A stretch of DNA of 30,891 nt from Actinomycetota bacterium (GCA_046724155.1 JBKOWA010000243.1:1-30891), one strand, 5' to 3'. Counted from the stretch's first letter, positions 1 through 29,892 are shown. The notes: generated by a model from the sequence alone, not told the origin. Made by a program: numbers and translations.

Positions 1-116
1 GGCTGACGGTGCGGTCGAAGGAGGCTACGGCACCGACGCCGGGCACTTCGGGCGACGCTGCTGTTGACCGTTCCCAATCAGGTGCGTACACGTGGCCATC
101 CTTGAACACTGACCGG

Positions 117-2521: not shown

Positions 2522-2621
2522 GGTTCCCCTTCCCTCTGGCGCGACTGGTGCACCAGGCGGAAAGCGCGGTGAACTACCGGGGCACGTAGTCGGAATTCGG
2601 TCAAGACTAGCACGGGCGGCG

Positions 2622-2747
2622 CCCGGGCGGGGTAAGCAAAATACGTAGCAGCGGGGCGCGAAGTCAACGCAATGCGTCCCGGCGGATGAGCTTGTCGCGG
2701 ACGCGCATGGTGTCGGCGTACCCGTAGCGTCCCTTTCGGCGCGGCAG
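2622..2747. promoter_or_regulatory. Divergent promoter region element, duplicated (inverted) at 15461-15586
   Basis: On the - strand TTGACT-N18-TATTTT faces the sulfotransferase. The palindrome ACGCA-A-TGCGT (2667-2677) abuts the -35. TGAGCTTGTCG at 2687-2697. Confidence 0.6.
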
Positions 2748-2794
2748 TTCATTTGTGCCGCCTGGTCAACCGGTGGCCCTACTGCGGAGGTCAC

Positions 2795-4758: not shown

Positions 4759-4790
4759 CCGGTGCGCCGCTTCCCGAAAGGAGTCTGTCG

Positions 4791-8177: not shown

Positions 8178-9070
8178 GCTTCCCGCTGGGGGACCGGGCG
8201 GGCAAGCTGACCGGGCCGCGCCGGGCGCTGCTCGAACGGCTGCTCGCGGACCGTCGCTCGGCCGCCGCGACGACGGACGCGACGGATGGCGGCCGGGCAC
8301 CGGTGCTGATGCGACCACCCGGCCCGGCGCGGGTGATCCTGGTGCACCCGTCAGGCGGTGAGCTGTTCTGCTACATACCGTTGGTCAGGGCGCTGCGCGA
8401 GGGCATCGGTGTGGCCGGGTTCGCCGCCGACCCACGGGATGCCGCCGTGCCTGCCCGGGACGGTATGACGGCGACTGCCACCAGGATCGCGCAGGCACTG
8501 ACCGCGACCGGCTTACCGGAGTCGTACTGCCTGGCCGGCTGGTCCTACGGGGGCGTGCTCGCCTTCGAGATCGCCAGGCAGCTGGAGCGGGATACCGGAC
8601 AACGGCCGCCGGTGGTGCTGCTGGACGCCTCCTACGACGAGGACGCCGTCCCGCTCGACGAGCCGACGGTGCGGCGGCGGTTCGTGCACGACGTCGCCAG
8701 GCTGGCCGGCCGGGACGGTCCGCCGGTGCGCGCGGTGCTGGACGACCGGGCCGCCGGCCTGGTCGACATCAGGGAGACGCTGGCGTCGCTCGAGGTCGAG
8801 CTGGAGCTGAGCGACGACGAGCTGGCCGGCCGCTACGCCGTCTTCCGGGCCTGCGCGCTGGCGTTGCAGTCGTACCGCCCGCCGGGCCCGTACGGCGGGC
8901 CGGTCACCCTGCTGGCCGTCCCGCCCCGCGCCGCCGTGGAAGGGCAGTGGCGGGCGGTGTGCACGGGCCCGTTCCGGAGCGACGACCTGCCCGGCGACCA
9001 CTACACGCTTTTCACCGAACCGGCGTTGAGCCGGATCGTCGCCGAGATCGAACGGACGCTCGCCCCCTGA
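8174..9070 (+). CDS. Stand-alone thioesterase with N-terminal extension
   Basis: LVHPSGG, LAGWSYGG (GxSxG), VVLLDA, PGDHYTL. ATGA overlap with the NRPS stop. Confidence 0.9.
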   Translation: MSFPLGDRAGKLTGPRRALLERLLADRRSAAATTDATDGGRAPVLMRPPGPARVILVHPSGGELFCYIPLVRALREGIGVAGFAADPRDAAVPARDGMTATATRIAQALTATGLPESYCLAGWSYGGVLAFEIARQLERDTGQRPPVVLLDASYDEDAVPLDEPTVRRRFVHDVARLAGRDGPPVRAVLDDRAAGLVDIRETLASLEVELELSDDELAGRYAVFRACALALQSYRPPGPYGGPVTLLAVPPRAAVEGQWRAVCTGPFRSDDLPGDHYTLFTEPALSRIVAEIERTLAP

Positions 9071-9080
9071 GGAGACGCAC

Positions 9081-10235
9081 ATGCGGTTCGGGTTCACCGA
9101 GGAACAACAACGGTTCCGGGCGGACGTGCGGCAGGCGCTGCGCTCCGCCGAGGTGCGTGCGGCGGTGGCGGACGCCACCGCCGCGGACGGCGTCGAGCCG
9201 GACGTGCGGCCGCTGTACCGCCTGCTCGGTGGGCTCGGGCTGCTCGCCGTGCACTGGCCCGCCGAGTTCGGCGGAGCAGGCCGCCCGCTCACCGATGCCG
9301 CGATCGTCGCCGAGGAACTGGTGCGCGCGGGAGTGCCGGACACGTTGCACGTCAACACCATCCAGATCGTCGGCCAGTTCCTGCTGATGGCGGGCAGCAC
9401 CGCGCAGAAGCGACGGCACCTGCCCGCGCTGGCGCACGGTGAGCGCTTCGCGTCGGTGCTCTACACCGAACCGGACGCGGGATCGGACCTCGGCGCGCTG
9501 CGGACCGTGGCCGAGCCGGACGGCGACGGCTACCGGATCACCGGCACGAAGGTGTTCAGCCTCAAGACCCGATTCGTCGATCTCGGGCTGTGCGCGGCCC
9601 GTACGACGCCGGAAGCCGGGAAGTACCAGGGGATCAGCCTGTTCCTGGTCGACCTGGGCGCCCCCGGCGTGACGGTGACGGTGATAGCCGGTGTCGGCGA
9701 CGAGCAGTTCCACCGGGTCGACCTCGACTCGGTGCCGGTGTCCGGCGACGACCTCTTCGGGCCGCGCGACCAGGGGTGGCCGCTGCTCAACCAGGCACTG
9801 GCCATCGAACGCACCGGCCTCGACTACTACCTCAAGGCAGAACACTGGCTGGAGGCCGCGCTGGAGGCACTGGTCGACCGCGGGCCGGACCGCCCGCCCG
9901 GCGCCTACCTCGAACAGATCGGCCGCTGGGACGGCGCGCTCACGGCCGACCACGCCCTCGCCTGGGAGGTGCTCACCGGACTCGCGGCCGACCGGGTCGA
10001 CCCGGTCGCGGCCGCCGTCGCCAAGTACCACAGCAGCGAGCTCGCCCAGAGCATCGCGGTGTGGGCCGCTGACATCCCCGGGCCCGAGCAGCGGGCGAAC
10101 CGCACCAGGGCGGCCGTGACACTGGACTCCGCCTACCGGGAGGCGCCGGGGCTCACGCTGTCGGCGGGAACCTCCGAGGTGATGCTGCAGATCATCGCCG
10201 CCGCGTTCGACTCCATCGGACAGGAGAAGCGCTGA
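9081..10235 (+). CDS. Acyl-CoA/acyl-carrier dehydrogenase, alpha subunit
   Basis: FTEEQQRFRADVR, WPAEFGG, LYTEPDAGSDLGALRT, ITGTKVFS, GWPLLNQALAIER, AGTSEV. GAGGAG RBS. Confidence 0.9.
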   Translation: MRFGFTEEQQRFRADVRQALRSAEVRAAVADATAADGVEPDVRPLYRLLGGLGLLAVHWPAEFGGAGRPLTDAAIVAEELVRAGVPDTLHVNTIQIVGQFLLMAGSTAQKRRHLPALAHGERFASVLYTEPDAGSDLGALRTVAEPDGDGYRITGTKVFSLKTRFVDLGLCAARTTPEAGKYQGISLFLVDLGAPGVTVTVIAGVGDEQFHRVDLDSVPVSGDDLFGPRDQGWPLLNQALAIERTGLDYYLKAEHWLEAALEALVDRGPDRPPGAYLEQIGRWDGALTADHALAWEVLTGLAADRVDPVAAAVAKYHSSELAQSIAVWAADIPGPEQRANRTRAAVTLDSAYREAPGLTLSAGTSEVMLQIIAAAFDSIGQEKR

Positions 10236-10236
10236 C

Positions 10237-11319
10237 GTGGACCCGACCCCCGATCCGCTCATCGTCCAGTTGCGCAGGGCGTTGCGTACGGCCCTCGCCC
10301 GGGTACCCGTGCGGTCGCAGGTGCACGGCGCGCCGGTGGCCGACGGAGCTTCCGGCCCCGCCCGGACCGTGCTCGACCAGCTGGGCGCGGCCGACTTCGA
10401 ACGACCCGCCTCCGCCGGCGGCCTCGACCTCGGCCTGACAGCCGGGGTGCTCGTCAGCGAGGAGCTCGGCCGCGCGGCATGCGGAAACCCTTACCGGGCC
10501 GACGCGATGGCAGCCGATGTGGGTTGCCCGGCAGGCGCGGCGCTGGCCGGACTGGAGGCACTGCCGGTCGGCAGCGGGGTCGCCGCGACACCGCGAGCGG
10601 GCGGCTGGGAGCTGACCGGCGCGGCCACGGTCGACGGCCCGGGACTCGGGCCGCTGCTGGTGGCCAGCAGGACAGGCGGCGATCCGGTGCTCGTCGCGGT
10701 GCCGCGCGGTGCGCCCGGCCGCAGTGTGGAGACCAGGTGCTGGCCGCCGGTCGTCCGGTTCGAGGCCACGCCGGTCACCGCAGTGGACGTGGTCGGGGAA
10801 CTGGACGACTCGCTTACCGGCCCGCTGGCGCGAGCGCGGCTCCGGCAGGCCGCCTACCTGCTGGGCATCGCCGACGGCGCGCACCAGGTCGCGGTGCGCT
10901 ACGCCGGTGTCCGGCGGCAGTTCGACACCAGGCTGCGTGACCTACCCGCAGTGGCCTTCCCGCTGGCACGTGCCGTGGTGGCGTTGCGCGCGACCAGGGC
11001 AGCGGTGTACCGGGGGGCCTGGCTGGTCGACTCCGGGCCCGGTCAGGCCGGCACCGCGCCGGTCGTGGCGCTGGCGATGGCCGCCGAGACCGCCCGCGAC
11101 GTGGTGCGGTTGTGCCTGCAGAGCTGCGGAGTGCGGGCGATGACGGCGGAGCTCGGTCTGCACCGGTACTTCCGGCTGGCCGCGGCCGAGTCCGTCCGGT
11201 ATGGCGAGCCGGCCGCGCTGTGGCGGCTGGCCGGCGCCGCCCGGCTCGACCTGGCCAGGCACACCGTCGCCGCCGACGACGGCACCGGACCTCCGGTCGT
11301 GGCGGCGGCCAGGCTCTAG
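10237..11319 (+). CDS. Acyl-CoA dehydrogenase-like protein, degenerate partner subunit
   Basis: LVSEELGRA, LRQAAYLLGIADGA, YAGVRRQFDTRLRDLPAVAFPLA, LQSCGVRAMTAE. Lacks the N-terminal TEP..GSD motif; starts 1 nt after the first ACAD stop. Confidence 0.8.
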   Translation: MDPTPDPLIVQLRRALRTALARVPVRSQVHGAPVADGASGPARTVLDQLGAADFERPASAGGLDLGLTAGVLVSEELGRAACGNPYRADAMAADVGCPAGAALAGLEALPVGSGVAATPRAGGWELTGAATVDGPGLGPLLVASRTGGDPVLVAVPRGAPGRSVETRCWPPVVRFEATPVTAVDVVGELDDSLTGPLARARLRQAAYLLGIADGAHQVAVRYAGVRRQFDTRLRDLPAVAFPLARAVVALRATRAAVYRGAWLVDSGPGQAGTAPVVALAMAAETARDVVRLCLQSCGVRAMTAELGLHRYFRLAAAESVRYGEPAALWRLAGAARLDLARHTVAADDGTGPPVVAAARL

Positions 11320-11322
11320 GGC

Positions 11323-12036
11323 TCAGCTCGCGCGCAGGTCCTCTTGCGGCCCGGGCTTCTCCTCGCCGGGAGCGCGTCCGGCCGGCTGGATGAGCCCGGA
11401 CCGGTACGCCAGTGACACGAGCTGGGCGCGGTCGCGGACACCGAGCTTGGTGCGCACCCGGTAGAGATGGGTACGAACGGTGGCCACGCCGATGGTCAGC
11501 GCGCGGGCCACCTCCTCGGTGGACATGCCCCGCGCCACCATCCGGGTCACCTCCCGCTCCCGCGGGGTCAGCTCGGTCACCTCCGGGCACGGCGCGGACT
11601 CCAGGGCGTCCGGCTGCTCGCGGAACCAGGTGACCAGGCGTTGCGCGACGGCCGGCGCGAGCATGGTTCGGCCCACGGCCGCCGCCCGGATCGCGGTGAC
11701 CAGCTCCGGTGTGCTCGCGTCCTTGCCGAGCAGGCAGCTCGCGCCGGCGTGCAGCACGTCGCTGACCGTCTTGTCGGCGTCGGATCCGGTGAACACCACG
11801 ATGTTGGGCCGGGCGTCCTCTTTGCTGAGCCGGCGGATCATCTCCAGGCCGGAAATGGTCCGCAGGCTCAGATCGGTGACCACGACATCGGGCCGGGCGG
11901 TGCGCACCAGGACGATGGCCTCCATGCCGTTGTCGGTCGTGTCGGTCACGTCGATGTCCGGCACGGCATCGAGTAGCGTCCGCAAGCCGTCCCTGACAAC
12001 TGGCAGCTCGTCGCAGATGAGTACCCGAATAGTCAT
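11323..12036 (-). CDS. NarL/LuxR-family response regulator (REC + HTH), no adjacent kinase
   Basis: IRVLICDE, PDVVVTD (phospho-Asp), LGKDA, ELTPREREVTRMVARGMSTEEVARALTIGVATVRTH. Confidence 0.92.
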   Translation of the reverse strand: MTIRVLICDELPVVRDGLRTLLDAVPDIDVTDTTDNGMEAIVLVRTARPDVVVTDLSLRTISGLEMIRRLSKEDARPNIVVFTGSDADKTVSDVLHAGASCLLGKDASTPELVTAIRAAAVGRTMLAPAVAQRLVTWFREQPDALESAPCPEVTELTPREREVTRMVARGMSTEEVARALTIGVATVRTHLYRVRTKLGVRDRAQLVSLAYRSGLIQPAGRAPGEEKPGPQEDLRAS

Positions 12037-12326
12037 CGTGTCCCGCCTCGATGAGGGGTGGCTGGCAGACCCGCTCGACCACCATACGTGACCAGGTCGA
12101 CGTCGCCGTCACAGTGACCGGGCACGGCGGGGATCCCGGCCAGGTCATTCGGCACGTGCTGCGTCAGGAAAGCTCCGCCGCGTCCTCATCGCCACCAGAT
12201 TCCGCCTTGCTCGGCCCGAACAGCCGACCCCCGCAGAAGTCCGGGCCATCCGCCCGGACCGGGAAGACTCAGCCGCATAGCAGCGAAACTTGAGCTTGTC
12301 GTCCACAGCGGACGCTACGCTGCTGC

Positions 12327-12377
12327 TCGATCGTTTCACCCGGTGTTTTCGAGCGAATGGCTGGTGTTTTCGAGCGA
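12327..12377 (+). promoter_or_regulatory. Direct-repeat array upstream of the amidinotransferase
   Basis: GGTGTTTTCGAGCGA at 12342-12356 and 12363-12377. TCGA(G/T)CG cores start at 12327, 12349 and 12370. Confidence 0.5.
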
Positions 12378-12423
12378 CCGACTGGCGCCGTGCTGGCGGC
12401 GCCCGGCAGGGGAGGGAAACCCG

Positions 12424-13464
12424 ATGAGCCTGGTCGATGTGCACACGGAATGGGATCCGCTCGAGGAGGTCGTCGTCGGGACCATGGCAGGCGCGCGGGT
12501 GCCGATCGTGGAGCGGAGCCTGCTCGCCACCGAATACCCGGACATAGACGATCCGCAGCAGGTTCCGTCCGGCCCGTATCCCGGCCACGTGGTCGAGCAG
12601 ACCGAGGCCGAGCTCGCAGAGCTGGTGGACCTGCTCACCGGCCTCGGCGTGTCCGTGCGGCGGCCCGGCGGGCGCGACCACAAGTCGGTCGTGTCCACCC
12701 CGGACTGGAGCACGGACGGGTTCTACGACTACTGCCCCCGGGACGGGTTCCTCACGGTCGGCAGCTCGATCATCGAGACACCGATGGTGCTGCGGTCCCG
12801 GTTCCTCGAAGGGTTCGCCTACAAGGACCTGTTCCTGGAGTACTTCGAGAGCGGTGCGCGGTGGCTGTCGGCGCCCAAGCCTCAGCTGACCGACGACATG
12901 TACGAGCCGACCGCGCCGCCGGGACAGCGGCTGCGCGATCTGGAACCGGCCTTCGACGCGGCGAACGTGCTCAGGTTCGGTACGGATCTGCTCTACCAGG
13001 TCTCCGACAGCGGCAACATGCTCGGCGCGCGCTGGCTGCAGTCGGTGCTCGGTGCGCAGTACACCGTGCACCCGTGCGAGGGCCTGTACACGTCCACCCA
13101 CATCGACTCGACGATCGTGCCGCTGCGACCCGGGCTCGTGCTGGTGAACCCGGCCCGGGTCAATGATGACAACATGCCCGCGTTCCTGCGTGGCTGGGAC
13201 CGGGTTGTCTGCCCGGAGCTGGTGGACACCGGCTTCGTCGGTGACCACCCGAGGTCGTCGGTGTGGATCGGGATGAACTTCCTGGTGGTCGCGCCCGGAA
13301 AAGCCATTGTGGACAAACGGCAGTCGGAGCTCATCCGGGTGCTGGAGCACCACGGAGTGGAGGTGGTCCCGGCGCAGCTCACCCACTCCAGGACTCTCGG
13401 CGGTGGGTTCCACTGCGTGACGCTCGACGTGCGCCGCACGGGCGCACTTGCCACCTACCGGTGA
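12424..13464 (+). CDS. L-arginine-dependent amidinotransferase (StrB1/glycine amidinotransferase family)
   Basis: MSLVDVHTEWDPLEEVVVG, YDYCPRD, PAFDAANVLRFG, HIDST, and C-terminal GGGFHCVTLDVRR with catalytic Cys. GGGAGGG RBS. Confidence 0.92.
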   Translation: MSLVDVHTEWDPLEEVVVGTMAGARVPIVERSLLATEYPDIDDPQQVPSGPYPGHVVEQTEAELAELVDLLTGLGVSVRRPGGRDHKSVVSTPDWSTDGFYDYCPRDGFLTVGSSIIETPMVLRSRFLEGFAYKDLFLEYFESGARWLSAPKPQLTDDMYEPTAPPGQRLRDLEPAFDAANVLRFGTDLLYQVSDSGNMLGARWLQSVLGAQYTVHPCEGLYTSTHIDSTIVPLRPGLVLVNPARVNDDNMPAFLRGWDRVVCPELVDTGFVGDHPRSSVWIGMNFLVVAPGKAIVDKRQSELIRVLEHHGVEVVPAQLTHSRTLGGGFHCVTLDVRRTGALATYR

Positions 13465-13492
13465 GGCGCGCCGCCGATCGGCAGTTGCCGGG

Positions 13493-14518
13493 TCAGGTCC
13501 GGTCGTGCAGGAGGGTGGGTGGGATGGTGTCCCAGGTGCCGCCGGTGCGGCGGTAGGCGATGCCGGACAGCAGTTCCAGCACGACCCGGTTGGCCAGCGC
13601 GGCGGTGATGTCGGCGTGGTCGTACGGCGGGCTGACCTCGACGACGTCGGCGCCGACGACGGGCAGGGTGACCGCGATCCGGCGGACCGCGTCCAGCAGC
13701 TCGCGGGCGGTCAGGCCGCCGGGCTCGGGGGTGCCGGTGCCGGGCGCCGCGCCGGGGTCGGCGACGTCGATATCGACCGAGACGAACACCCCGTCGCAGT
13801 CGTCGGTGGCGATCGCGAACGCCTCGTCCAGGCAGGCCGGCAGACCGCGGCGGACGATCTCGTGCATCTCGAACGAGCGCATCCGCTGGGCGGCCATCCA
13901 GTCCAGGGTGGGCGGCTCGGGCCAGTACCCGCGCAGGCCGAGCTGGACGAACCGGTCTCCGCGGCAGGCGCCGGACTCGATCAGCCGGCGCATCGGCAGC
14001 CCGTGCCCGATCAGCGAGCCGAACTGGAACTCGCCGGTGTCGGCGTGCGCGTCGAAGTGCAGCACGCTGACCCGGCCCCAGCCGACCGCCCGGGCCACCC
14101 CGGTCACGTCCGGCCAGGTGATGGTGTGGTCCCCGCCGAGCACCACCGGCACCGCCCCGGCCGTGGCCACCTGCTGCACCGCCGCCTCCAGCCGGTCCAG
14201 CGGCAGCCGCCCCTCCACCCCCGGCATCGGCACGTCGCCGGCGTCGGCGACGCGCAGGTCGGCCAGCGGGTCCACGCGCAGCGCCAGGTGCGGCCGGGAC
14301 CCGTCGTGCGACAGGTAGTCCGCGGTCCGGATCGCCTGCGGCCCGAACCGGGCGCCGGCCCGGTACGACGCCCCCGCGTCGTAGGGCGCACCCAGGATCA
14401 CCGCGTCCAGCCCGGACAGCGCGGCCGGATCGGCCAGGTCGCAGCGCGGCACACCCAGGAACGTCACGTCCGGCCCGTACATCCCCCCGACACGCACCAC
14501 GCCGCGATCATCCCACAC
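13493..14518 (-). CDS. speB: Ureohydrolase (agmatinase/guanidinobutyrase/proclavaminate amidinohydrolase-like)
   Basis: GARFGPQAIR, GGDHTIT, HFDAHADT, SVDIDVADP, PGTGTPEPGG. Start uncertain (alternative ATG 14482). Confidence 0.88.
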   Translation of the reverse strand: MWDDRGVVRVGGMYGPDVTFLGVPRCDLADPAALSGLDAVILGAPYDAGASYRAGARFGPQAIRTADYLSHDGSRPHLALRVDPLADLRVADAGDVPMPGVEGRLPLDRLEAAVQQVATAGAVPVVLGGDHTITWPDVTGVARAVGWGRVSVLHFDAHADTGEFQFGSLIGHGLPMRRLIESGACRGDRFVQLGLRGYWPEPPTLDWMAAQRMRSFEMHEIVRRGLPACLDEAFAIATDDCDGVFVSVDIDVADPGAAPGTGTPEPGGLTARELLDAVRRIAVTLPVVGADVVEVSPPYDHADITAALANRVVLELLSGIAYRRTGGTWDTIPPTLLHDRT

Positions 14519-14620
14519 CTCAAACGGTGCGCAGGTCGCGCCGGCGGTGAGCAGTTCGGTGGCCGAGCAGCGCCGGGTAGCGGCGCAGCGCGCGGATGTG
14601 GGTGCTGACGCCGATCCGGG

Positions 14621-15391
14621 TCAGTACCGGCTCTCCCGCTGGGCTGGCGGCCGCAGCCGCAGGCCGTGCATGCCGCCGTCCACGGCAAGCACCGTGCCCA
14701 CCGAAGCGCCCGACAGCGGGCTCGCCAGGTAGGCGATCGCGTTGGCCACCTCGTCGGCCGACACCAGACGCCCCATCGGCTGCCGCGCGTTGAGCGCGGC
14801 CCGTTCGGCCGCCGGATCCGCCGTCCGGTCGAGCAACCTGTCCACCCACGGCGTGTCCGCTGTACCAGGGGCGACGCAGTTGACCCGGATGCCCTCGCGG
14901 ACGTGGTCCGCCGCCATCGCCAGCGTCAGCGCGTACACCGCGCCCTTGCTGGCGGAGTACAGCACCCGCTGCTCCAGCCCGGCCCACGCGACGATCGAGC
15001 ACGTGTTGACGATCGCCGCGGCGGGTGAGCGCCGCAGGTGCGGCAACGCGTGCCGGGCGACCCTGACCATCCCGACCACGTTGACGTCCAGCACCCGCAG
15101 CCACTCGTCGTCGCTGTTCCCGGAGACATCCCCGACCGCGCTGATCCCGGCGTTGTTCACCACCACGTCCAGCCTGCCGAACCGCTCGACCACGGCGTCC
15201 ACGGCGGACCTGACCTGGGCGTCGTCGGTGACGTCGGCCTTGATGCCCATGATGCCGCCCGGGACGCCGTCCGGATCGAGATCGAGCGCGGCGACCTCGG
15301 CTCCCCTGCCGTGCAGCAGTTCCGCCGTGGCCAGGCCGATCCCCGACGCACCACCGGTGACGATCGCGACCAGTCCTTCGAAGTCACTCAC
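14621..15391 (-). CDS. Short-chain dehydrogenase/reductase
   Basis: VTGGASGIG, VVNNAG, YSASK, VNCVAPGT. GTG at 15391 follows a GGAGAG RBS. Confidence 0.92.
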   Translation of the reverse strand: MSDFEGLVAIVTGGASGIGLATAELLHGRGAEVAALDLDPDGVPGGIMGIKADVTDDAQVRSAVDAVVERFGRLDVVVNNAGISAVGDVSGNSDDEWLRVLDVNVVGMVRVARHALPHLRRSPAAAIVNTCSIVAWAGLEQRVLYSASKGAVYALTLAMAADHVREGIRVNCVAPGTADTPWVDRLLDRTADPAAERAALNARQPMGRLVSADEVANAIAYLASPLSGASVGTVLAVDGGMHGLRLRPPAQRESRY

Positions 15392-15460
15392 GAGTTCTCT
15401 CCCGTCCACTCCGGACCATCGTCCGGTTGCAGCATCGAGATCGCGCCGGCCGGCAGCGGT

Positions 15461-15586
15461 CTGCCGCGTCGCGAGGGACGTTACGGGTCCGCCGGCACCG
15501 TGCGCGTCCGCGACAAGCTCATCCCCGGGGACGCACTGCGTTGACCTTCCTCCCGGGTGGCTGCGTATTTCGCTTACCTGCCCGGG
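15461..15586 (+). repeat. Inverted, diverged copy of 2622-2747
   Basis: By-eye alignment gives 10 mismatches in the first 85 nt, an identical core TGCGCGTCCGCGACAAGCTCATCC, and retained ACGCA-N-TGCGT, TTGAC and CGTATTT.GCTTACC. Confidence 0.9.
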
Positions 15587-15595
15587 TTGCGCCCG

Positions 15596-15810
15596 ACTTC
15601 GACGACGGCTCGGTCGCGCGGGACCGCTGCGGGTCTCCGACTTTCTGGGCGGCGCCTGCATGGTTCGGCGAACTCAAGGCGTTTGAGAACCGGGTCATGC
15701 ACTATCCGCACCACGTGCAGCGGGGCGTGTCCGCGGTCATGCGGGCGCAGCGGGTGCCGGTCACCCGGCGTGCCGGCCTGGCCACCGTCCGGCTGCCCCG
15801 CAACATCGCG
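15596..15810 (+). repeat. Inverted copy of 27418-27632 (internal fragment of the aziU2-like gene)
   Basis: 215 bp with 7 substitutions and 2 single-base indels by eye. Both loci translate to FWAAPAWFGELKAFE..VMHYPHHVQRGVSAVM.AQRVPVTRRAGLA.VRLPRNIA. Confidence 0.95.
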
Positions 15811-15828
15811 GAAAGGGTGGACCACGCA

Positions 15829-17028
15829 ATGACTGACCGCTTGACGCCGGATGACCACATCGCCATCGCCGAGCGCTGGAGCGCGCACAACTACCACCCG
15901 TTGCCCGTGGTGCTCACTCATGGGGAGGGCGCCTGGCTGACCGATCTGAACGGCAGGCGCTACCTCGACTTCCTCGCCGGGTACTCCGCGCTCAACTTCG
16001 GCCACCGGCACCCGGACATCGTCGCCGCGGCCAAGGCACAGCTCGACCGGCTGACGCTGACCGGCCGCGCGTTCCACCACGACCAGTTCGGACTGTTCTG
16101 CCGTGAGCTGGCCGAGCTGACGGGCACCGACATGGTGCTGCCCGCCAACTCCGGCGCCGAGGCGGTCGAGTCGGCCCTGAAGATCGCCAGGAAGTGGGCC
16201 TACCAGGTCAAGGGCGTGCCGGACGGCGCCGCCGAGATCGTGGTCGCCGGCGAGAACTTCCACGGCCGCACGACGACCATCGTCTCGTTCTCCACCGACC
16301 CGGACGCCCGCAACGGGTTCGGCCCGTTCACCCCGGGCTTCACGGTGGTGCCGTACGGCGACATCGACGCGCTGCGCTCGGCGGTCACCGAGAACTCGGC
16401 AGCGGTGCTGCTGGAGCCGATCCAGGGCGAGGCGGGTGTGGTCGTCCCGCCGAAGGGGTACCTCGCCGAGGTCCGTCAGCTGTGCGACGACAGCTTCACA
16501 CTGTTCATCGCCGACGAGGTCCAGTCCGGACTGGCCCGCACCGGCGCGACGCTGGCGCTGGACCACGAAGGCGTCCGCGCGGACCTGTACGCCCTGGGCA
16601 AGGCGCTGGGTGGCGGGATCATGCCGGTGTCCGCGGTGGTCGGCCGGGCCGACGTCCTCGGCGTGCTCAAGCCCGGCGAGCACGGCTCGACCTTCGGCGG
16701 CAACCCGGTGGCGTGCGCGGTCGGCCGCGCGGTGGTGCGGTTGCTGGCGACCGGGGAGTTCCAGGAACGGTCCCGCGAACTCGGCGCGTACGTGCACTCC
16801 CGGCTCGGCGAACTGGAGGGCGTCGCCGAGGTCCGCGGCCGCGGCCTGTGGGCCAGCGTGCAGATCGCCGAGGGCAGCCGGACCGGACGCGAGGTGTCCG
16901 AGGCACTGGTCGAGCGCGGCGTGCTGTGCAAGGAATACCATTCGAGCCTCCGGGTGGCGCCGCCGCTGGTGATCACCCGTGCGGAGATCGACTTCGGCAT
17001 CGACGCGCTCGCCGCGGTTCTCGCGTGA
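15829..17028 (+). CDS. rocD: Ornithine--oxo-acid aminotransferase (class III PLP)
   Basis: AHNYHPLPVV, YLDFLAGYSALNFGHRHP, NFHGRT, EPIQGEAG, DEVQSGLARTG, LGKALGGG, HGSTFGGNP. Confidence 0.9.
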   Translation: MTDRLTPDDHIAIAERWSAHNYHPLPVVLTHGEGAWLTDLNGRRYLDFLAGYSALNFGHRHPDIVAAAKAQLDRLTLTGRAFHHDQFGLFCRELAELTGTDMVLPANSGAEAVESALKIARKWAYQVKGVPDGAAEIVVAGENFHGRTTTIVSFSTDPDARNGFGPFTPGFTVVPYGDIDALRSAVTENSAAVLLEPIQGEAGVVVPPKGYLAEVRQLCDDSFTLFIADEVQSGLARTGATLALDHEGVRADLYALGKALGGGIMPVSAVVGRADVLGVLKPGEHGSTFGGNPVACAVGRAVVRLLATGEFQERSRELGAYVHSRLGELEGVAEVRGRGLWASVQIAEGSRTGREVSEALVERGVLCKEYHSSLRVAPPLVITRAEIDFGIDALAAVLA

Positions 17029-17067
17029 CCCGCCCGGTGCGCCCGGACGAGGAAAACCGGGAATGGG

Positions 17068-18318
17068 TTGAGGACGGTGTGGCGGGGGCCGAAGGTGCGG
17101 CTTGACCAGTACCGGAAGGTGGTCGCCGTCCGGGGCTTCCCCCTGGTCATGGCGCTCGGGCTGCTCGCCAAGCTGCCGATCGTGGCGATCCCGATCATCC
17201 TGACCCTGCACGTGGCGACCGGGCTCGATCGCGGGTACGGGCAGGCGGGCCTGGTGATCGGGGCGTGGACCGCGGGGGTCACCGTCAGTGCGCCCGTCCT
17301 GGGCCGGTTCATGCAGCGGTACGGCCTTCGGCCGGTGCTGGCGGTCGTCACCCTGGCCCAGGGGGTGTTCTGGGGCCTGGCGCCGCAGCTGTCGTTCCCG
17401 GTCTTCGCGGCGGGTGCACTCGCCTCAGGGCTGCTGCTGGTGTCGGGCTCCACCGTGGTCCGGCTGGCCATCGGCGGGCTGGTCCCGCAGGAACATCGGC
17501 ACACGGCCTTCGCGGTGGACTCGGTGATCACCGAAGTCTCGATCATGATCGGCCCCGCCCTGGCCGTTCTGGTCACCTCTCAGACCTCCACGAAGGGTGC
17601 GCTGACCAGTCTCTGTGTCGCCCTGGTCATCAGCTGCGGCGCCCTGGCGGTGTTCAATCCCAGGATCGAAGGGGCGCCCGCGGCCGGCGGTACGAACGCT
17701 CCAGCCGCCGCAGCGCCGCGGAACTGGCTGACCGTCCGGTTGGTCGCCGTTCTCGCCTGCTCGCTGTCGGCCGGAGCGATCGTCACGGGGTACGAGGTCG
17801 TCGTCGTCGGCACGCTGCGGTCCACGGGCCAGCTCGGGTGGACGGGGCTGGTGCTCTTCGGATGCGGGGTGTGCTCGCTGGTCGGCGGGCTGGTGTACGG
17901 GGCTCTTCCGCGCGGCCTTCCGGTGCCGTTGATGATCGGTCTGCTGGCTTTGGCCACGATGCCCCTGGGGCTGGTGGGGCCGCGCTGGTGGGTGCTCGCC
18001 CTGGCGATCGTCCCGGCCGCGGCACTGGTCGCGCCGGGGTTCGCCGCGACCGCGAACGCTGTCAGTCAAGAGGCCGGGTACGGCAGCCAGGCGGTCGTCA
18101 TGAGCGTCTATGGATCCGCGCTCAGCGCCGGCAGCTCGATCGGCGCGCCACTGGCGGGAGCGGCCTTCGAGTCGGGTGGCGCCGAGGCCGGTTTCGCGTC
18201 GGTGGGCGGACTGGGCGTGATCGTCGCGGTCTCGGCCTGGACCGTGCTGGGGCGCCGTTCGGAACGGGTGCGCGAGGACTACGTCCCAGCTACCCAAGGT
18301 ATGCCGGTTGAAAGGTAA
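17068..18318 (+). CDS. MFS transporter (probable exporter)
   Basis: About 12 hydrophobic segments, motif-A-like GRFMQRYGLRPVL, two-halved architecture. Start may be GTG 17095. Confidence 0.88.
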   Translation: MRTVWRGPKVRLDQYRKVVAVRGFPLVMALGLLAKLPIVAIPIILTLHVATGLDRGYGQAGLVIGAWTAGVTVSAPVLGRFMQRYGLRPVLAVVTLAQGVFWGLAPQLSFPVFAAGALASGLLLVSGSTVVRLAIGGLVPQEHRHTAFAVDSVITEVSIMIGPALAVLVTSQTSTKGALTSLCVALVISCGALAVFNPRIEGAPAAGGTNAPAAAAPRNWLTVRLVAVLACSLSAGAIVTGYEVVVVGTLRSTGQLGWTGLVLFGCGVCSLVGGLVYGALPRGLPVPLMIGLLALATMPLGLVGPRWWVLALAIVPAAALVAPGFAATANAVSQEAGYGSQAVVMSVYGSALSAGSSIGAPLAGAAFESGGAEAGFASVGGLGVIVAVSAWTVLGRRSERVREDYVPATQGMPVER

Positions 18319-18321
18319 GGA

Positions 18322-18411
18322 ATGCCTGCTCCGCAGAATGTCGGCGTGGTCGGCTCGTATGCGTCGATGCGGTTGCTCGCGGAAGAGCTGAAGGCGGGAG
18401 TCGCGGCATGA
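18322..18411 (+). CDS. 29-aa small ORF or gene remnant
   Basis: MPAPQNVGVVGSYASMRLLAEELKAGVAA*. AAGG just upstream; the stop overlaps the ATG of the next gene (ATGA). Confidence 0.3.
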   Translation: MPAPQNVGVVGSYASMRLLAEELKAGVAA

Positions 18412-19658
18412 CGATCTTGGAACTCGACGGCGCCGAACATGTCGTCATCGTCAACCGGTGGGCGGAGCGCTACGCGGACTTCTCGCGGTACGCCGACCAT
18501 CGGGCACATCGGGTCACCTATGTGAGCACAGCGGTGGGGCTGTCCGCCATCCCCGCCGAGGCCACCGAGGTGGTCACGGTGAAGGCCACCGACGACCTGG
18601 CGGAAGTGACCGCCGCGGTGGACGGCCTGGCGCGCCGTCACGGGGCTCCGGACCGTATTGTGGCGCTGAAGGAGGACGATCTCCTGGTCGGTGCCGCCCT
18701 GCGGGAGAAGTGGGAGGTGCCGGGCCCCCGGGTGGACCAGCTGCTGCCGTTCCGGGACAAGTTCCTGATGGCGACGCGGGTGGCCGAGGCAGGGGTGGCG
18801 GTGCCGGATTTCGCCCTGGTGCCCGACGCGCAGGCCGTGCGGGGGTTCGCCGAGCGCGCCGGCTGGCCGGTCATCGTCAAACCGACGGTCGGCAGTTCCA
18901 GCGCCGGCGTGGTCCGGCTCGACGGACCGGGTGACCTGAGCGGGCTCTCCTTCGACGAGGGCCCCCTGCTGGCACAGGTGTTCAACCCGCACCAGATCTA
19001 CCACGTGGACGGGGTCTTCACCGGAGAACGACTGTTGGTCGTGCGCGCCTCCCGGTACCTGAACAACTGCCTGGGATTCCGTGGCGGTGGGACTCTGGGC
19101 TCGGTGGAGGAGAGCGACCCGGAAATCACGGGGATTATCGCCGAGTTCACGCTGCGGGCCATGCGTGCACTGTCGGACCGGGCCCTGGTCTTTCATCTCG
19201 AAATGTTCCTGGACGTGGATACGGGTTCCTGTGCCTTCCTGGAGGTCGGCGCCCGGGCGGGCGGCGCGGAGATCCCGCTGCTCTGGCGGGAGGTCCACGG
19301 GCACGACCTGATGGAAACCGCGTTCCGGATTCAGATGGGCCTGCGGATCCGTGCGGAGGCCCCACGGATCGCGGACGAGGTCGGCGGCTGGCTGCTCGTT
19401 CCGGCGCCGGTGAACCGTCCCTGCCGGATCACCGAGATCACACCGATGGTGGGCCGGCAGCCGGGCCCTTACGCCGAGGTGTTGCTGAGGGTGGGAGAGG
19501 TCCTGCCCGATGCCGACTCGTACTACGAGCACGTCGGCGGCCGCTTCCGGTTCCGGGGGGAGTCCAGCCAGGCCGTGGAGGCGGCGATCCGCACGATCGC
19601 GGCCGATTTCCGGGTGAGCGCGGAACCCGTGAGCCTGGTGCGGCGAACACCGGAGTGA
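18408..19658 (+). CDS. ATP-grasp ligase 1 (L-amino-acid ligase-like)
   Basis: FRDKFLM, GWPVIVKPTVGSSSAGV, YHVDG, FHLEMF, FLEVGARAGG. Confidence 0.88.
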   Translation: MTILELDGAEHVVIVNRWAERYADFSRYADHRAHRVTYVSTAVGLSAIPAEATEVVTVKATDDLAEVTAAVDGLARRHGAPDRIVALKEDDLLVGAALREKWEVPGPRVDQLLPFRDKFLMATRVAEAGVAVPDFALVPDAQAVRGFAERAGWPVIVKPTVGSSSAGVVRLDGPGDLSGLSFDEGPLLAQVFNPHQIYHVDGVFTGERLLVVRASRYLNNCLGFRGGGTLGSVEESDPEITGIIAEFTLRAMRALSDRALVFHLEMFLDVDTGSCAFLEVGARAGGAEIPLLWREVHGHDLMETAFRIQMGLRIRAEAPRIADEVGGWLLVPAPVNRPCRITEITPMVGRQPGPYAEVLLRVGEVLPDADSYYEHVGGRFRFRGESSQAVEAAIRTIAADFRVSAEPVSLVRRTPE

Positions 19659-19729
19659 AGAGGATGGGCATGGAATACGAGACCACGCCGGCGACGCGCG
19701 GTACCTCGGGCGTCAATGGAGCGCCAGAA

Positions 19730-21025
19730 TCACCTGGCAGGGAACGTCTTTCCTTGTCGAGGGTTGTCGTCGTAGAGGTAGTCGCGTTCGATTTGCCGCA
19801 GCTTCTCGTAGTCGGCGCGAATCTCTTCCGGATCATCGGAGATGAGAAATATCCACCCCGGCTGGGTCGCGACATCGATCGTTCGCGGAAGCGGGTGCCC
19901 TTCCGGATGCGCCATGAGGGTATGGGCGTAGGACGGTAGCGCGCGGATGGCGGCCATCGTCTCGTGGGACGGGACCACGCCGTGGTCCCTCGGGTTGATC
20001 AGAGACACGTCACGTGGGTGCTGCAGCAGCTGGTACACGGTGGTTGGCAGGCGGTTGAACTCGTCCGGGTCCACCACGGCCAGCGTGAAGAGCTCTATCT
20101 GGTTGGTGCCGAAACAGCGCGTGTTGATCTCCGGAACCTGGCCACCGCCGAAGCGTGCGGCACACTCGACGAGCACCGGCCCGCCGGCGGTCAGCATGAC
20201 CTCGGTGTGGGCGGCCCAGTTGCGGATCTCCAGGGCGTCGAGCACCTGGTGAGTGTAGGACTCCAGCTTTTTGGCGACCGGGTCGTCCGGCGCCAGCGGC
20301 TCGTCGTAGTCGTAGATGATGTTGCCGCCGGCGAGCCGAATCTTGTAGTACCGCCAGATCTCGACGGTGTGATGCCTGCCGTCACGACTGACCGTGTTGA
20401 CGAAGTACTCTTCCCCGGCCAGGAACTCCTGCGCGAGCACCACCGTATTGGGCTTCCCGTGACGGTCGGTACTGGTCATGATCTTTTCGTGGACGGCGCG
20501 AACCTGCTCCGGAGACGAACATGCCGCGACGTTGTCCGTGCCGGAGCTGGCGACCGGTTTCAGGACGACCGGGTAGCCTGCGGTCGTCTCGGCCCACGCG
20601 ATGATGTCGTCGGCATCGGATGCGACTGTGGTGGCCGCGTGTGCCAGTCCGGCATCGCGCAGTGCCAGGACCATGTCATATTTGTTGCGTCGGGCCGTCG
20701 GTCGGCTCATCCCGTTGCCGGGAGTGTCGAGCTCGGCGGAGAGCTGGTCGGCCAGCTCGACGCCCGACTCCCCGGCGGCGATCACGTAGCTGACCCCACG
20801 CGCACGCAGCGCGGCCGCCGTGGCCACGACGTCACCGTCATGGCGGACATTGTCGACGAAACCATCGGGGATCGGCAGCCGAGCCAGGTGAACGTCGGGG
20901 CTCGGCGACTGGACGTGCACACACTCCACGTCGTGCCGGTGCAGCGCGGGCAGCAGGTGGCGCCCCATCGAGTACGCGTCGACCAACGCCGCTCGTGTCG
21001 TCTGCGCGCGAGAACTGGTTGGCAT
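19730..21025 (-). CDS. ATP-grasp ligase 2 (NikS/L-amino-acid ligase-like)
   Basis: LVDAYSMG, RRNKYDM, YPVVLKPVASSGTDNV, QEFLAGEEYFVN, AHTEVML, LVECAARFGGG. Confidence 0.88.
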   Translation of the reverse strand: MPTSSRAQTTRAALVDAYSMGRHLLPALHRHDVECVHVQSPSPDVHLARLPIPDGFVDNVRHDGDVVATAAALRARGVSYVIAAGESGVELADQLSAELDTPGNGMSRPTARRNKYDMVLALRDAGLAHAATTVASDADDIIAWAETTAGYPVVLKPVASSGTDNVAACSSPEQVRAVHEKIMTSTDRHGKPNTVVLAQEFLAGEEYFVNTVSRDGRHHTVEIWRYYKIRLAGGNIIYDYDEPLAPDDPVAKKLESYTHQVLDALEIRNWAAHTEVMLTAGGPVLVECAARFGGGQVPEINTRCFGTNQIELFTLAVVDPDEFNRLPTTVYQLLQHPRDVSLINPRDHGVVPSHETMAAIRALPSYAHTLMAHPEGHPLPRTIDVATQPGWIFLISDDPEEIRADYEKLRQIERDYLYDDNPRQGKTFPAR

Positions 21026-21077: not shown

Positions 21078-21923
21078 TTATGCCGAATTCGTTGTCACCG
21101 AATTCGTTGTCACCGTGGTGCCGGACCCGGCCAGCGCTCGGCTGACCGGGCTGGGTACCCGCCCGTCCGCTATGCGTACCGACGCCACTCCGCCGGCCAG
21201 TGCCTCACGTGCCGCAACGAGTTTGAGTGCCATGCCACCGCCGGCGAACCGGCCCGGCGCGCCGGTCGCCGGCACCTCGTAGGTACTCAGCACGCTGGTG
21301 TCGTCGTCGGGATCGGCGAGTACCCCTGGTGCGCCGGTCAGCAGCACCAGCTGGTCAGCACCGAGTGCCGCCGCGAGCGCTGCCGCGACGCGGTCGGCGT
21401 CGACGTTCACCGGGTGGTCGTGCTCGTCGATCGCGGGCGGTGAGACCACCGGCACGAAGCCGGACCGCAGCAGGGTTTCCGCCAGTTCGGTGCGCACCTC
21501 GCTGAGCCGGCCGCTGAGGTTGTCCCGGACCAGTGTCGTCCGACCATCCACAACGGACCGGACGGCGGACTTGCGGCGGGCGCGCAGCATGCCGCCGTCC
21601 AGGCCGGTGAGGCCGACCGCGGGCACCCCGAGCCGGGACAGCTCCGCGACGATGCTTGGTTTGACCCCACCGGCCAGCGCGAGGATGACCACCTCCAGCG
21701 TCGCCGGGTCGGTGTACCTGGTGGACACCTTGTCCGGGGCGACGAGGGTGCGTTGCGGGACACCGAGTCTCCCGGCCAGTCGGGCGATCTCCCCAGAACC
21801 TCCGTGCACCAGGAGAACCGACTGCCCGGCACGGACGAGCCCGGCGACGTCGGCGCAGATGCCCGCGGCGTCGACGGCCGGGTTGCCGCCGCACTTGACG
21901 ACTGTCAGCGGTCTGGCGGTCAC
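21078..21923 (-). CDS. lysZ: [LysW]-glutamate/aminoadipate kinase (LysZ/ArgB family)
   Basis: VVKCGG, LVHGGSGEI, RYTD, GLTGLDG, NVDADRVAA, GGMALKL. GGAGA RBS before GTG 21923. Confidence 0.9.
   Translation of the reverse strand: MTARPLTVVKCGGNPAVDAAGICADVAGLVRAGQSVLLVHGGSGEIARLAGRLGVPQRTLVAPDKVSTRYTDPATLEVVILALAGGVKPSIVAELSRLGVPAVGLTGLDGGMLRARRKSAVRSVVDGRTTLVRDNLSGRLSEVRTELAETLLRSGFVPVVSPPAIDEHDHPVNVDADRVAAALAAALGADQLVLLTGAPGVLADPDDDTSVLSTYEVPATGAPGRFAGGGMALKLVAAREALAGGVASVRIADGRVPSPVSRALAGSGTTVTTNSVTTNSA
21083..21115. repeat. 15-bp tandem duplication at the lysZ 3' end
   Basis: CCGAATTCGTTGTCA x2 + CCG, giving C-terminal VTTNS-VTTNS. Confidence 0.9.
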
Positions 21924-23012: not shown

Positions 23013-23186
23013 CTACTCTCCCCAGTCCTCTTCGACCTCGGGCGCGAGGGCGAGCACCACCGGGCTCAACGCCACGATCTCCAGTTCGTTTCGGCAGCCC
23101 GCACACTCGACGATCTCGTTGAGCCGCACCGAGTGGCCGATCTGCACCTCGTCCTCGCACTCCGGGCAGGTCTGCGCTGTGGTCAT
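23013..23186 (-). CDS. lysW: Amino-group carrier protein LysW/AmCP, 57 aa
   Basis: CPEC...CAGC zinc ribbon and the invariant C-terminal EDWGE. GAAAGGA RBS. Confidence 0.96.
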   Translation of the reverse strand: MTTAQTCPECEDEVQIGHSVRLNEIVECAGCRNELEIVALSPVVLALAPEVEEDWGE

Positions 23187-27374: not shown

Positions 27375-27972
27375 GCTCGACCTCCGCCCGCTGCAGGGTG
27401 ACCGCGAAGACATGCATCGCGATGTTGCGGGGCAGCCGGACGCCGGCCAGGCCGGCACGCCGGGTGACCGGCACCCGCTGCGCCCACATGACCGCGGACA
27501 CGCCCCGCTGCACGTGGTGCGGATAGTGCATGACCGGGGTCTCAAACGCCTTGAGTTCGCCGAACCATGCCGGCGCCGCCCAGAAGTCGGAGACCCGCAG
27601 CGGTTCCGCGTCGACCGAGCCGTCGTCGAAGTTCAGCTCGACGGTGTCCTCGCTACGCCGTTCCGCCGCCGCCAGCACGTGCACCCAGTCGTAACGACCC
27701 GCCGGCACGGTGAGGAACTGTCCGGCGCAGCGGACGTTGTCCGGCCCGTCGCTGACCGGAGGGAACAGGAAGGGAACGCCGGCCACGTGGACGAGGCTTT
27801 CGCCCGCGGGCAGGTACTCGGCGGCAAACGAGTTCCTCCACACGTTGAACTCTCCCGCTTTGGTCTCCGTCGCCGCGGTGATGGCCGTGTTGTTGCGATG
27901 GCCGGAGATGTCGACCGGGTCGTACAGTCGGGTCATGGCGGAGGGCACCAGGATGTTCGTCAAGTGATCCAC
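27364..27972 (-). CDS. Beta-sandwich-like hypothetical protein, probable AziU2/Vzb10-type partner
   Basis: Clean 202-aa ORF with high-GC codon usage (GEFNVWRNSF, DNVRCAGQ, AAAERRSED, MHYPHHVQ), coupled to the BtrH-like gene. Alternative start ATG 27936. Function from context only. Confidence 0.6.
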   Translation of the reverse strand: MDHLTNILVPSAMTRLYDPVDISGHRNNTAITAATETKAGEFNVWRNSFAAEYLPAGESLVHVAGVPFLFPPVSDGPDNVRCAGQFLTVPAGRYDWVHVLAAAERRSEDTVELNFDDGSVDAEPLRVSDFWAAPAWFGELKAFETPVMHYPHHVQRGVSAVMWAQRVPVTRRAGLAGVRLPRNIAMHVFAVTLQRAEVEHDQ

Positions 27973-29722: not shown

Positions 29723-29892
29723 CCGCCCCGACGCCCGGTTCCTGCCCAGCCCGACCTGCCGACCCAACCCCGCATAGGAGAGCCTTGGCGCGACGCGCCG
29801 GCTGCTCGGTGCCCAGCTCTATAGCATCTGTGCTATGTCGTGGAGTGCCGTGGAACTGGAGCCGGAGGTGCGGAGGAGGTCTGAGCATGGCC
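29723..29892 (+). pseudogene. Internally deleted remnant of a Gp49/XRE TA operon paralogous to 931-1429
   Basis: Promoter + MSWSAVELEPEVR (29835-29873) joined directly to AGGAGGTCTGAGCATGGCC (identical to 1411-1429), then TAG and unrelated sequence. Confidence 0.88.

Follow-up and report, generated by a model that had tools for sequence, protein, structure and literature searches.

In this report, we examine a 30.9-kb stretch of actinomycete DNA (Actinomycetota bacterium, GCA_046724155.1), which we call the window and which is one complete contig of a high-GC (72%), 65%-complete metagenome-assembled genome (MAG). We particularly focus on three of its genes, which encode a transporter of the major facilitator superfamily (MFS) and two ATP-grasp proteins, here termed LAL1 and LAL2 after the L-amino-acid ligases (LALs). 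Gene calling, guided by the GC content at third codon positions (GC3) and by Pfam, delimits a biosynthetic cluster from about 1790 to 27972, in which these genes lie next to a core of the kind that makes ficellomycin. On sequence grounds, we assign to the three genes a probable role as the peptide-finishing and export layer of this cluster, and we read this layer as a composite of two units with different histories.

The first part of the cluster (1790-15400) contains, in order, a sulfotransferase (minus strand), LysX, LysK (of the M20 family), a nonribosomal peptide synthetase (NRPS) with condensation, adenylation and thiolation (C-A-T) domains, a thioesterase (TE), two genes resembling acyl-CoA dehydrogenases (ACAD), a LuxR-type regulator (minus strand), an amidinotransferase, a ureohydrolase (minus strand) and a short-chain dehydrogenase/reductase (SDR, minus strand). 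The plus strand then carries, from 15790 to 19658, a class-III aminotransferase (AT3), the MFS gene and LAL1, the last two spaced by 90 bp. The minus strand, read from 27972 down to 19730, encodes an AziU2-like protein, a BtrH_N protein (AziU3-like), a DegT aminotransferase, a split transketolase (TK-N and TK-C), LysW, LysY, LysZ and LAL2, the latter being the final gene of this lysW operon, 52 bp beyond lysZ. A preliminary description of the locus had located the three genes in this way, with the ligases converging at 19658/19730 and LAL2 ending the lysW operon, and the gene calls bear it out. All three open reading frames (ORFs) show a coding GC3 signature. In the 71-bp gap between the two ligase genes no terminator-like hairpin was found, and the RNA there folds no better than shuffled sequences (z = 0.19).

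Both ATP-grasp proteins are predicted, from sequence and structural models, to be enzymes of the LAL fold. They are dissimilar, as had been described, with 24% identity over 235 residues, and their homology is seen at the profile level (hhalign probability of 98.7%). LAL2 passes the Pfam threshold of ATP-grasp_4 (PF13535; 36.8 bits for a cutoff of 27) and that of the NCBIfam model NF005543 (358 bits for a cutoff of 302). It also aligns over its full length with NF041595, the model of the dapdiamide ligase DdaF (E = 4e-64, residues 14-417 on positions 12-417 of 424), at 216.8 bits, below the equivalog cutoff of 840 bits (LAL1 reaches 21.8 bits), so that we classify LAL2 by sequence as DdaF-like and not as DdaF itself. 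In phmmer searches of the PDB, it matched the "L-amino acid ligase" 30vh over its full length (E = 5.6e-64), as well as RizA (1.9e-11), BL00235 and BacD; its AlphaFold2 model (pLDDT of 88.3) gave BL00235, RizA and YwfE/BacD as the best Foldseek matches (3vot, 4wd3, 3wo1 and 3vmm). For LAL1, the phmmer match was RizA (4wd3, E = 3.7e-14), which was also the best Foldseek match of its model (pLDDT of 82.8; E = 1e-26), followed by BL00235 (3vot) and YwfE (3wo1). The analogies to dapdiamide and rhizocticin proposed in the preliminary description were therefore apt, LAL2 being DdaF-like and LAL1 RizA-like. Residues K156, H273, E275, E287, R291 and G294 are invariant among 23 LAL2 sequences, and K158, H263, E265, E279, R283, G285 and G286 among 21 LAL1 homologues. 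The lysine of the K-P strand is thus kept in both families, as is an H-x-E ... E-x3-R-x-G-G block for which RizA and BL00235 have an aligned counterpart, and these conserved ATP-grasp residues presumably bind the nucleotide and magnesium and take part in catalysis. As for the transporter, it matches MFS_1 at 82.6 bits for a cutoff of 33.4 (E = 3e-23) and has nine hydrophobic segments by Kyte-Doolittle; we consider it a putative exporter of the finished peptide.

The two ligases can be set beside several known systems. RizA of rhizocticin, BL00235 and BacD/YwfE of bacilysin, the best fold matches of both models (TM-scores of 0.66-0.75, with 15-20% identity in the structural alignments), are stand-alone ligases that join a proteinogenic residue as a cap to their warhead amino acid; they are Firmicute enzymes working on other warheads, and their specificity is not transferable to LAL1 or LAL2. 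DdaF adds Val, Ile or Leu to the carboxylate of N-beta-fumaramoyl-diaminopropionate (DAP). It works apart from any NRPS and forms the amide bond that comes second in a pseudopeptide bearing the warhead (PMC12568646). It resembles LAL2 by alignment over the full model; the two systems differ in their warheads, clusters and host phyla. Among solved structures, the nearest to LAL2 is the "L-amino acid ligase" of PDB entries 30vh and 30vq, at full length and about 45% identity by eye. That 30vh might be TabS was a guess for which we found no support in the literature, and it was set aside. Two dissimilar ATP-grasp ligases, as in the window, also work as stand-alone pairs on warhead peptides in the routes to phosphonoalamide (PnaB/PnaC, PMC11867202) and mangotoxin (MboC/MboD, PMC13725569), where in both cases they build a tripeptide around a non-proteinogenic residue; the mbo cluster has the transporter MboF in addition. 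We claim no orthology with these pairs, which serve other warhead chemistries and have neither a LysW carrier nor an NRPS stage.

The AziU2-like protein of the window led to Streptomyces ficellus (P0260, 82% identity). The core genes are 77-90% identical to and syntenic with the ficellomycin cluster of this species, with 87% for the SDR, 82% for AT3 and 86% for the amidinotransferase. The shared set comprises the LuxR regulator, the ACAD pair, the NRPS, LysK and LysX, the sulfotransferase, the AziU2- and AziU3-like proteins, DegT, the split transketolase, LysW, LysY and LysZ, the SDR, AT3 and the amidinotransferase. The ficellomycin-type gene set for azabicyclohexane formation on an AmCP (amino-group carrier protein) is complete in the window, including the C-A-T NRPS with its TE. 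Such genes belong to the AmCP-mediated formation of diaminodihydroxyheptanoic acid (DADH), the sulfate-dependent formation of the aziridine and the NRPS-bound ring closure by an oxidase heterotetramer (PMC11726168, PMC9570651, PMC11880133). Because the same genes occur in the same order at 77-90% identity, we assign the window to the ficellomycin type of clusters.

The picture changes at the ligases and the exporter. The equivalent slot of S. ficellus likewise holds an L-amino-acid ligase and an MFS gene beside AT3 and the SDR, in the order AT3-LAL3-MFS-SDR. LAL3, whose sequence includes a LAL_C2 domain, shares only 25-27% identity with LAL1 and LAL2, and the MFS protein of S. ficellus is unrelated to that of the window (E = 0.012). 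Where the window carries LAL2 after lysZ, S. ficellus carries cysC, cysD and cysN. No orthologue of LAL1 or LAL2 was found in S. ficellus, and none of LAL3 in the window or the rest of the 65%-complete genome. Compared to the ficellomycin cluster, what appears to be new in the window is thus the non-orthologous ligases and exporter, and an additional agmatinase-like gene. The product is probably a new ficellomycin congener, that is, a peptide version of a known warhead, as far as the gene content can tell. At the edge of the S. ficellus cluster (L098), there are two further genes: a PGM1-like ATP-grasp peptide ligase (PreAtp-grasp and PGM1_C; 5326-6603, minus strand), which comes in addition to the set of the window, and an extra M20 peptidase (3807-5333, plus strand). 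We found no mention of either in the accessible literature.

This variability extends beyond one species. A survey of 401 Streptomycetaceae genomes anchored on AziU2 gave 26 with an AziU2-like gene, about seven of them at an identity of at least 74%. Among the seven clusters with the nearest cores (66-91% identity), four have the AT3-LAL3-MFS-SDR arrangement, and the other three differ, with LAL2 in cis in the first, a different ligase in the second and no ligase inside 20 kb in the third; apart from S. ficellus itself, three sampled clusters with a conserved core show its arrangement. A ligase-adjacent MFS gene is present in almost every variant. We regard the ligase/exporter complement as the variable part of otherwise conserved clusters, judging from gene content. 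In two genomes whose cores are otherwise conserved, neither lysZ nor lysY lies closer than 20 kb to the AziU2-like gene (G756, loci L099-L100; G504, loci L103-L104). In G504, the SDR, AT3 and any ligase are also missing within the same 20 kb, and this cluster may be a hydroxyl-bearing, vazabitide-like variant.

LAL2 and the MFS-LAL1 pair show different distributions. For LAL2, 400 genomes sampled evenly across the class yielded a single orthologue, at 67%, which was too sparse, and its distribution comes from a targeted scan of 80 LAL2-anchored loci, in genomes that are interrelated, so that the counts are not independent. LAL2 orthologues at 65% identity or more are almost always accompanied by LysW, LysZ and LysY, by AT3 and the SDR, or by both groups, and are usually followed by a ficellomycin-type MFS gene. 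In other genomes, LAL2 begins 3-6 bp after lysZ, and the direct lysZ-LAL2 order recurs in several architectures. Streptomyces sp. NPDC056479 is a cultured strain with LAL2 in cis. Some LAL2 loci seemed to be lysW-only, lysW-less or orphan; in all eight such genomes tested, an AziU2-like gene was found (76-85% identity), in four of them 18-33 kb away on what is apparently the same contig and in the rest on other contigs. This argues for LAL2 as a long-term resident gene of the pathway rather than an add-on.

Some LAL2 genes are nevertheless found outside of the lysW operon. Satellite loci devoid of lysW have the order amidinotransferase-LAL2-AT3-LAL3 (L015, L017, L023, L024, L028, L031 and L032, at about 8.7-14 kb in each). 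They belong to Streptomyces genomes in which a different contig bears a complete ficellomycin-type cluster, and at least three genomes apparently combine a satellite with a LAL3-type cluster in cis; the cultured strains NPDC012637 and NPDC012769 have this combination. Fusions of an EamA transporter to LAL2, of about 720 amino acids, form a separate subfamily in lysW-less clusters (L035, L037-L040 and L047; P0095, P0099 and P0103), next to genes for a lysine/ornithine N-oxygenase, PALP, a cupin and an N-acetyltransferase. Three of the five genomes with such fusions have no AziU2-like gene.

The MFS-LAL1 pair corresponds to an accessory two-gene unit, whose order is kept in at least four further loci. 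Orthologous pairs occur in Solwaraspora sp. WMMB335 and Streptomyces sp. NPDC032472 (73% and 69% identity for MFS, 77-79% for LAL1). In Solwaraspora, a DDE transposase gene closes the series aziU2-like, btrH-like, AT3, MFS, LAL1; NPDC032472 has part of a transposase gene upstream of MFS-LAL1, and the same cluster contains LAL2, LAL3 and a ficellomycin-type MFS gene. A metagenome contig whose ligases are 90% (LAL1) and 87% (LAL2) identical to those of the window has the order LysZ-LAL2-AT3-SDR-MFS-LAL1. In three other genomes, LAL1 (66%) sits between the transketolase and lysW and adjoins a third ATP-grasp gene; in one of the loci (L025) the gene upstream of LAL1 had been considered as an MFS gene of the window type, which was ruled out, as it is this third ATP-grasp gene. 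At 69-79% identity, MFS-LAL1 orthologues were found solely inside azabicycle clusters. More distantly, a lysW-less, stand-alone block of S. viridochromogenes combines an ATP-grasp gene, an MFS gene (42%), a LAL2-like gene (33%) and a LAL1-like gene (61%).

By its gene content, the window belongs to a lineage in which MFS-LAL1 seems to replace the LAL3-MFS pair of S. ficellus. In the window itself, no insertion sequence was found, and MFS-LAL1 has a normal GC3. Two inverted copies of core sequences lie between the SDR and AT3 genes, upstream of AT3-MFS-LAL1: one of 168 nt is derived from the junction of the aziU2-like and btrH-like genes, and the other, of 99 nt, from the divergent intergenic region of the sulfotransferase and lysX genes. 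These copies fit a recent rearrangement which would have retained AT3-MFS-LAL1 under a core-type control, and the btrH-like/AT3 adjacency in Solwaraspora suggests where the 168-nt fragment came from. As copies of core control regions stand upstream of them, AT3, MFS and LAL1 would be co-regulated with the core.

The codon usage was examined as well. The preliminary description had noted, qualitatively, that A/T-ending codons look more frequent in this interval than in the core genes. We found that the GC3 values are 0.882 for MFS, 0.871 for LAL1 and 0.826 for LAL2, for a mean of 0.901 (standard deviation of 0.030) in the remaining genes of the cluster. MFS and LAL1 are ordinary; only LAL2 is low (z = -2.5), and it shares this with lysZ, a core gene (0.829). 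Genome-wide, with 1099 long coding-like ORFs as the reference, MFS, LAL1 and LAL2 rank at the 30th, 26th and 12th GC3 percentiles, and the total GC of LAL2 at the 1.4th. The GC3 dip of the window (-0.075) is in the low tail and spans LAL2 and lysZ rather than the three genes. In related loci, the total GC of LAL2 is below that of its neighbours in 25 cases out of 25, and the GC3 differs by -0.002 on average; the amino-acid composition typical of the family thus largely accounts for the low GC. The codon-usage profile hence gives no sign of foreign origin for MFS and LAL1 and an ambiguous one for LAL2. The image of a plug-in cassette may hold for MFS-LAL1, which adjoins transposase genes in two other genomes, within a layer that is variable and modular; it does not hold for the three genes as one unit, since LAL2 is a resident next to lysZ. 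The search for the same trio in unrelated clusters, which had been recommended, did return a distant version, that of S. viridochromogenes, at 33-61% identity, in support of the preliminary description.

Features of the window mentioned in the text, with their positions and the basis of their assignment.
Feature	Position	Strand	Basis or remark
MFS transporter	17068-18318	+	MFS_1 Pfam match
LAL1, predicted RizA-like ATP-grasp with L-amino-acid-ligase fold, accessory ligase	18408-19658	+	PDB match and model
Convergent gap between LAL1 and LAL2, 71 bp	19659-19729	.	no terminator-like site
LAL2, predicted DdaF-like L-amino-acid ligase, resident ligase	19730-21025	-	Pfam, NCBIfam, PDB and model
AT3, class-III aminotransferase, opens the AT3-MFS-LAL1 unit	15790-17028 (start codon uncertain)	+	Aminotran_3, E = 4e-115
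lysZ-type amino-acid kinase, immediately upstream of LAL2	21078-21920	-	AA_kinase, E = 1e-35
lysW, amino-group carrier protein	about 23013-23183	-	CxxC...CxxC and EDWGE tail; PF21344 at 46.3 bits, above cutoff
StrB1-like amidinotransferase	12343-13464	+	best protein atlas hit (score 0.99) "inosamine-phosphate amidinotransferase"; without Pfam match
SDR	14621-15400	-	hydroxyl-to-guanidine tailoring context, with AT3 and amidinotransferase
Agmatinase-like ureohydrolase	13493-14518	-	TIGR01230, 184.7 bits for a cutoff of 174.3
LysX with pre-ATP-grasp domain	2753-3673		
168-nt inverted copy (96%) of aziU2-like 3' end / btrH-like 5' end (27418-27585)	15643-15810	.	repeat search
99-nt inverted copy (84%) of the region between the divergent sulfotransferase and lysX genes (2649-2747)	15461-15559	.	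repeat search
AadA-type aminoglycoside nucleotidyltransferase, open at the contig 5' end, just outside the cluster	3-887	+	

Some other features of the window deserve mention. The agmatinase-like ureohydrolase gene converges on that of the amidinotransferase and has no counterpart among the roughly 100 related loci surveyed, S. ficellus included; it is therefore specific to the cluster of this lineage. A 75-nt direct repeat (83%) flanks the entire cluster, with copies at 1048-1122 and 29813-29887, 28.8 kb apart; either copy takes in a Gp49/HigB-type toxin gene's upstream region and its initial codons (MTWGTVELEPEV... and MSWSAVELEPEV...). The cluster may thus be an insertion, or the repeats may reflect recombination between toxin-antitoxin modules. 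Finally, an 8.8-kb contig (L007, "Actinomycetota bacterium isolate GS_EKS_MAG_00025") with the order LysW-LysY-LysZ-LAL2-LAL1-MFS-AT3-SDR is 98-100% identical to the window, so the same population has been assembled at least twice.

How could these genes finish a peptide? The core would build a guanidino-1-azabicyclo[3.1.0]hexane amino acid on LysW, through LysX, LysZ, LysY and LysK, the split transketolase, DegT, and the sulfotransferase with the AziU2/AziU3-like pair. The ACAD-like oxidase pair would close the ring on the C-A-T NRPS, from which the TE would release the product, and the SDR, AT3 and amidinotransferase would turn a hydroxyl into the guanidine. In this scheme, the warhead amino acid would be free only after hydrolysis by LysK, and again after its release from the NRPS by the TE. 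Each LAL would spend ATP on converting the carboxylate of a free amino acid or peptide to an acyl-phosphate, to which the amine of a second one would be coupled. In this way, LAL2 and LAL1 together would lengthen the free warhead amino acid by one or two proteinogenic residues, and the di- or tripeptide so formed would be exported by the MFS protein. Purely by analogy, LAL1 might, as a RizA-like enzyme, add the N-terminal residue, with the warhead as nucleophile, and LAL2 might, as a DdaF-like one, add the C-terminal residue on the warhead carboxylate.

On balance, we favor this reading of a free azabicyclic amino acid that the two ligases extend by one or two residues and that leaves as a peptide through the MFS protein. 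It starts from the gene identities, folds, motifs, synteny and distribution described above, from which we infer the substrates, the order of addition, its timing relative to the release by the TE, and the export. Ligation seems to be tied to export, because an MFS gene adjoins the ligase in almost every variant and because EamA-LAL2 fusions exist. The proposed roles in Trojan-horse uptake through peptide permeases and in self-protection by masking of the amine would be reasonable by analogy with phosphonopeptides.

Several points weigh against it. LAL1 stays under every curated Pfam and NCBIfam cutoff (best E-values of about 0.004 and 5e-11, respectively), and the substrate specificity of LALs is not readable from sequence. 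LAL1 homologues at 58-61% identity sit in unrelated clusters of tryptophan/kynurenine type. The C domain of the NRPS looks intact and might form the peptide bond instead. In addition, LAL2 is tightly linked to AT3 and the amidinotransferase, including in the lysW-less satellites, and could act on an intermediate or build a separate guanidino block. Lastly, we found no accessible paper naming the enzyme that attaches the valine of ficellomycin (or vazabitide), and because of this LAL3 is itself only a presumed valine ligase.

The tryptophan/kynurenine-type setting can be seen in a conserved cluster with a LAL1-like ligase in Kutzneria, a Mycobacterium-labelled assembly and Acrocarpospora (L135, L136 and L137, about 6.6-16 kb). 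Its order is a circularly permuted ATP-grasp, the LAL1-like ligase, a tryptophan dioxygenase (TDO), a kynureninase-like protein, a second TDO-like protein, an FAD monooxygenase, a class-IV aminotransferase and a cyclase, which probably make up a pathway to a kynurenine-derived amide or peptide.

The two ligases might also be used differently. In a convergent assembly, one of them, most likely LAL1, would make a proteinogenic dipeptide which LAL2 would join to the warhead, as for PnaC/PnaB, and a tripeptide would be exported. Streptomyces offers the precedent of two dissimilar LALs (PMC11867202), the presence of the LAL1 family in many unrelated clusters would fit a generic dipeptide-forming role, and LAL2 would be the pathway-specific ligase. 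Convergent and sequential addition cannot be distinguished by the sequences, but a cluster with LAL2 as its only ligase exists (G756), so that LAL2 needs no partner forming dipeptides, and we hold such an assembly to be unlikely. The ligated residue could also be transient: a ligase, especially LAL2, would add a handle or protecting residue during the hydroxyl-amine-guanidine tailoring or the handling of the aziridine, and a peptidase would later strip it. This would account for LAL2 adjoining AT3 in many loci and the amidinotransferase in satellites; the mangotoxin route indeed uses a ligated residue which is removed later (PMC13725569), and the extra M20 peptidase at the edge of the S. ficellus cluster could serve such a step. 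The window, however, has no dedicated extra peptidase besides the LysK-type M20, and the known azabicycle products are peptides, being described as nonribosomal ones in the case of ficellomycin and vazabitide (PMC9303977), so a retained residue is simpler and a transient one quite unlikely.

Two other possibilities would detach one or more of the genes from the capping of the azabicycle. MFS-LAL1, possibly with LAL2, could be a mini-cluster nested in the larger one that makes and exports its own small peptide, unrelated to the azabicycle. The stand-alone block of S. viridochromogenes and the transposase genes next to MFS-LAL1 in two genomes point in this direction. Yet the restriction of the close MFS-LAL1 orthologues to azabicycle clusters, the co-direction of the pair with AT3 behind copies of core control regions, and the tracking of AziU2-like genes by LAL2 orthologues (8/8 genomes) make it improbable. 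Alternatively, LAL2 could act on the carrier protein and load or re-load a substrate on the C-terminal glutamate of LysW, like LysX. Its location within the lysW operon would then make sense; it directly follows lysZ in many genomes, and it matches LysX and RimK weakly in NCBIfam (E = 1e-4 to 2.5e-5). We consider this highly improbable: a bona fide LysX is already encoded in the cluster, LAL2 is nearest, in sequence as in fold, to ligases that work on free amino acids, and LAL2 also occurs on lysW-less satellites and, fused to EamA, in lysW-less clusters.

A further-reaching reading, which we hold to be rather unlikely, is that LAL2 would mark a second ligation step of most ficellomycin-type producers, encoded in cis after lysZ or on a satellite in genomes with a complete cluster, and that the products of the family would usually be longer than, or capped differently from, ficellomycin and vazabitide, S. 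ficellus being a reduced exception. The exchangeable units (LAL1-MFS, LAL3-MFS, LAL2 and EamA-LAL2) would then amount to a combinatorial capping by which one DNA-alkylating warhead would be retargeted to different uptake systems.

Ficellomycin, vazabitide and the azinomycins are potent DNA-alkylating azabicyclohexane peptides, and the chemistry of their ring is now understood. The step leading from the warhead to the exported peptide is far less documented. The window and about 100 related loci share a conserved core for building the ring, whereas ligases and exporters of the finishing stage are exchanged, present in duplicate or relocated to satellites, which corrects the idea of the three genes as a single foreign cassette. 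The ligase sets would predict new ficellomycin congeners, in the MAG as well as in named cultured strains, and LAL1, LAL2 and LAL3 would constitute a small panel of ligases for the enzymatic diversification of the warhead.

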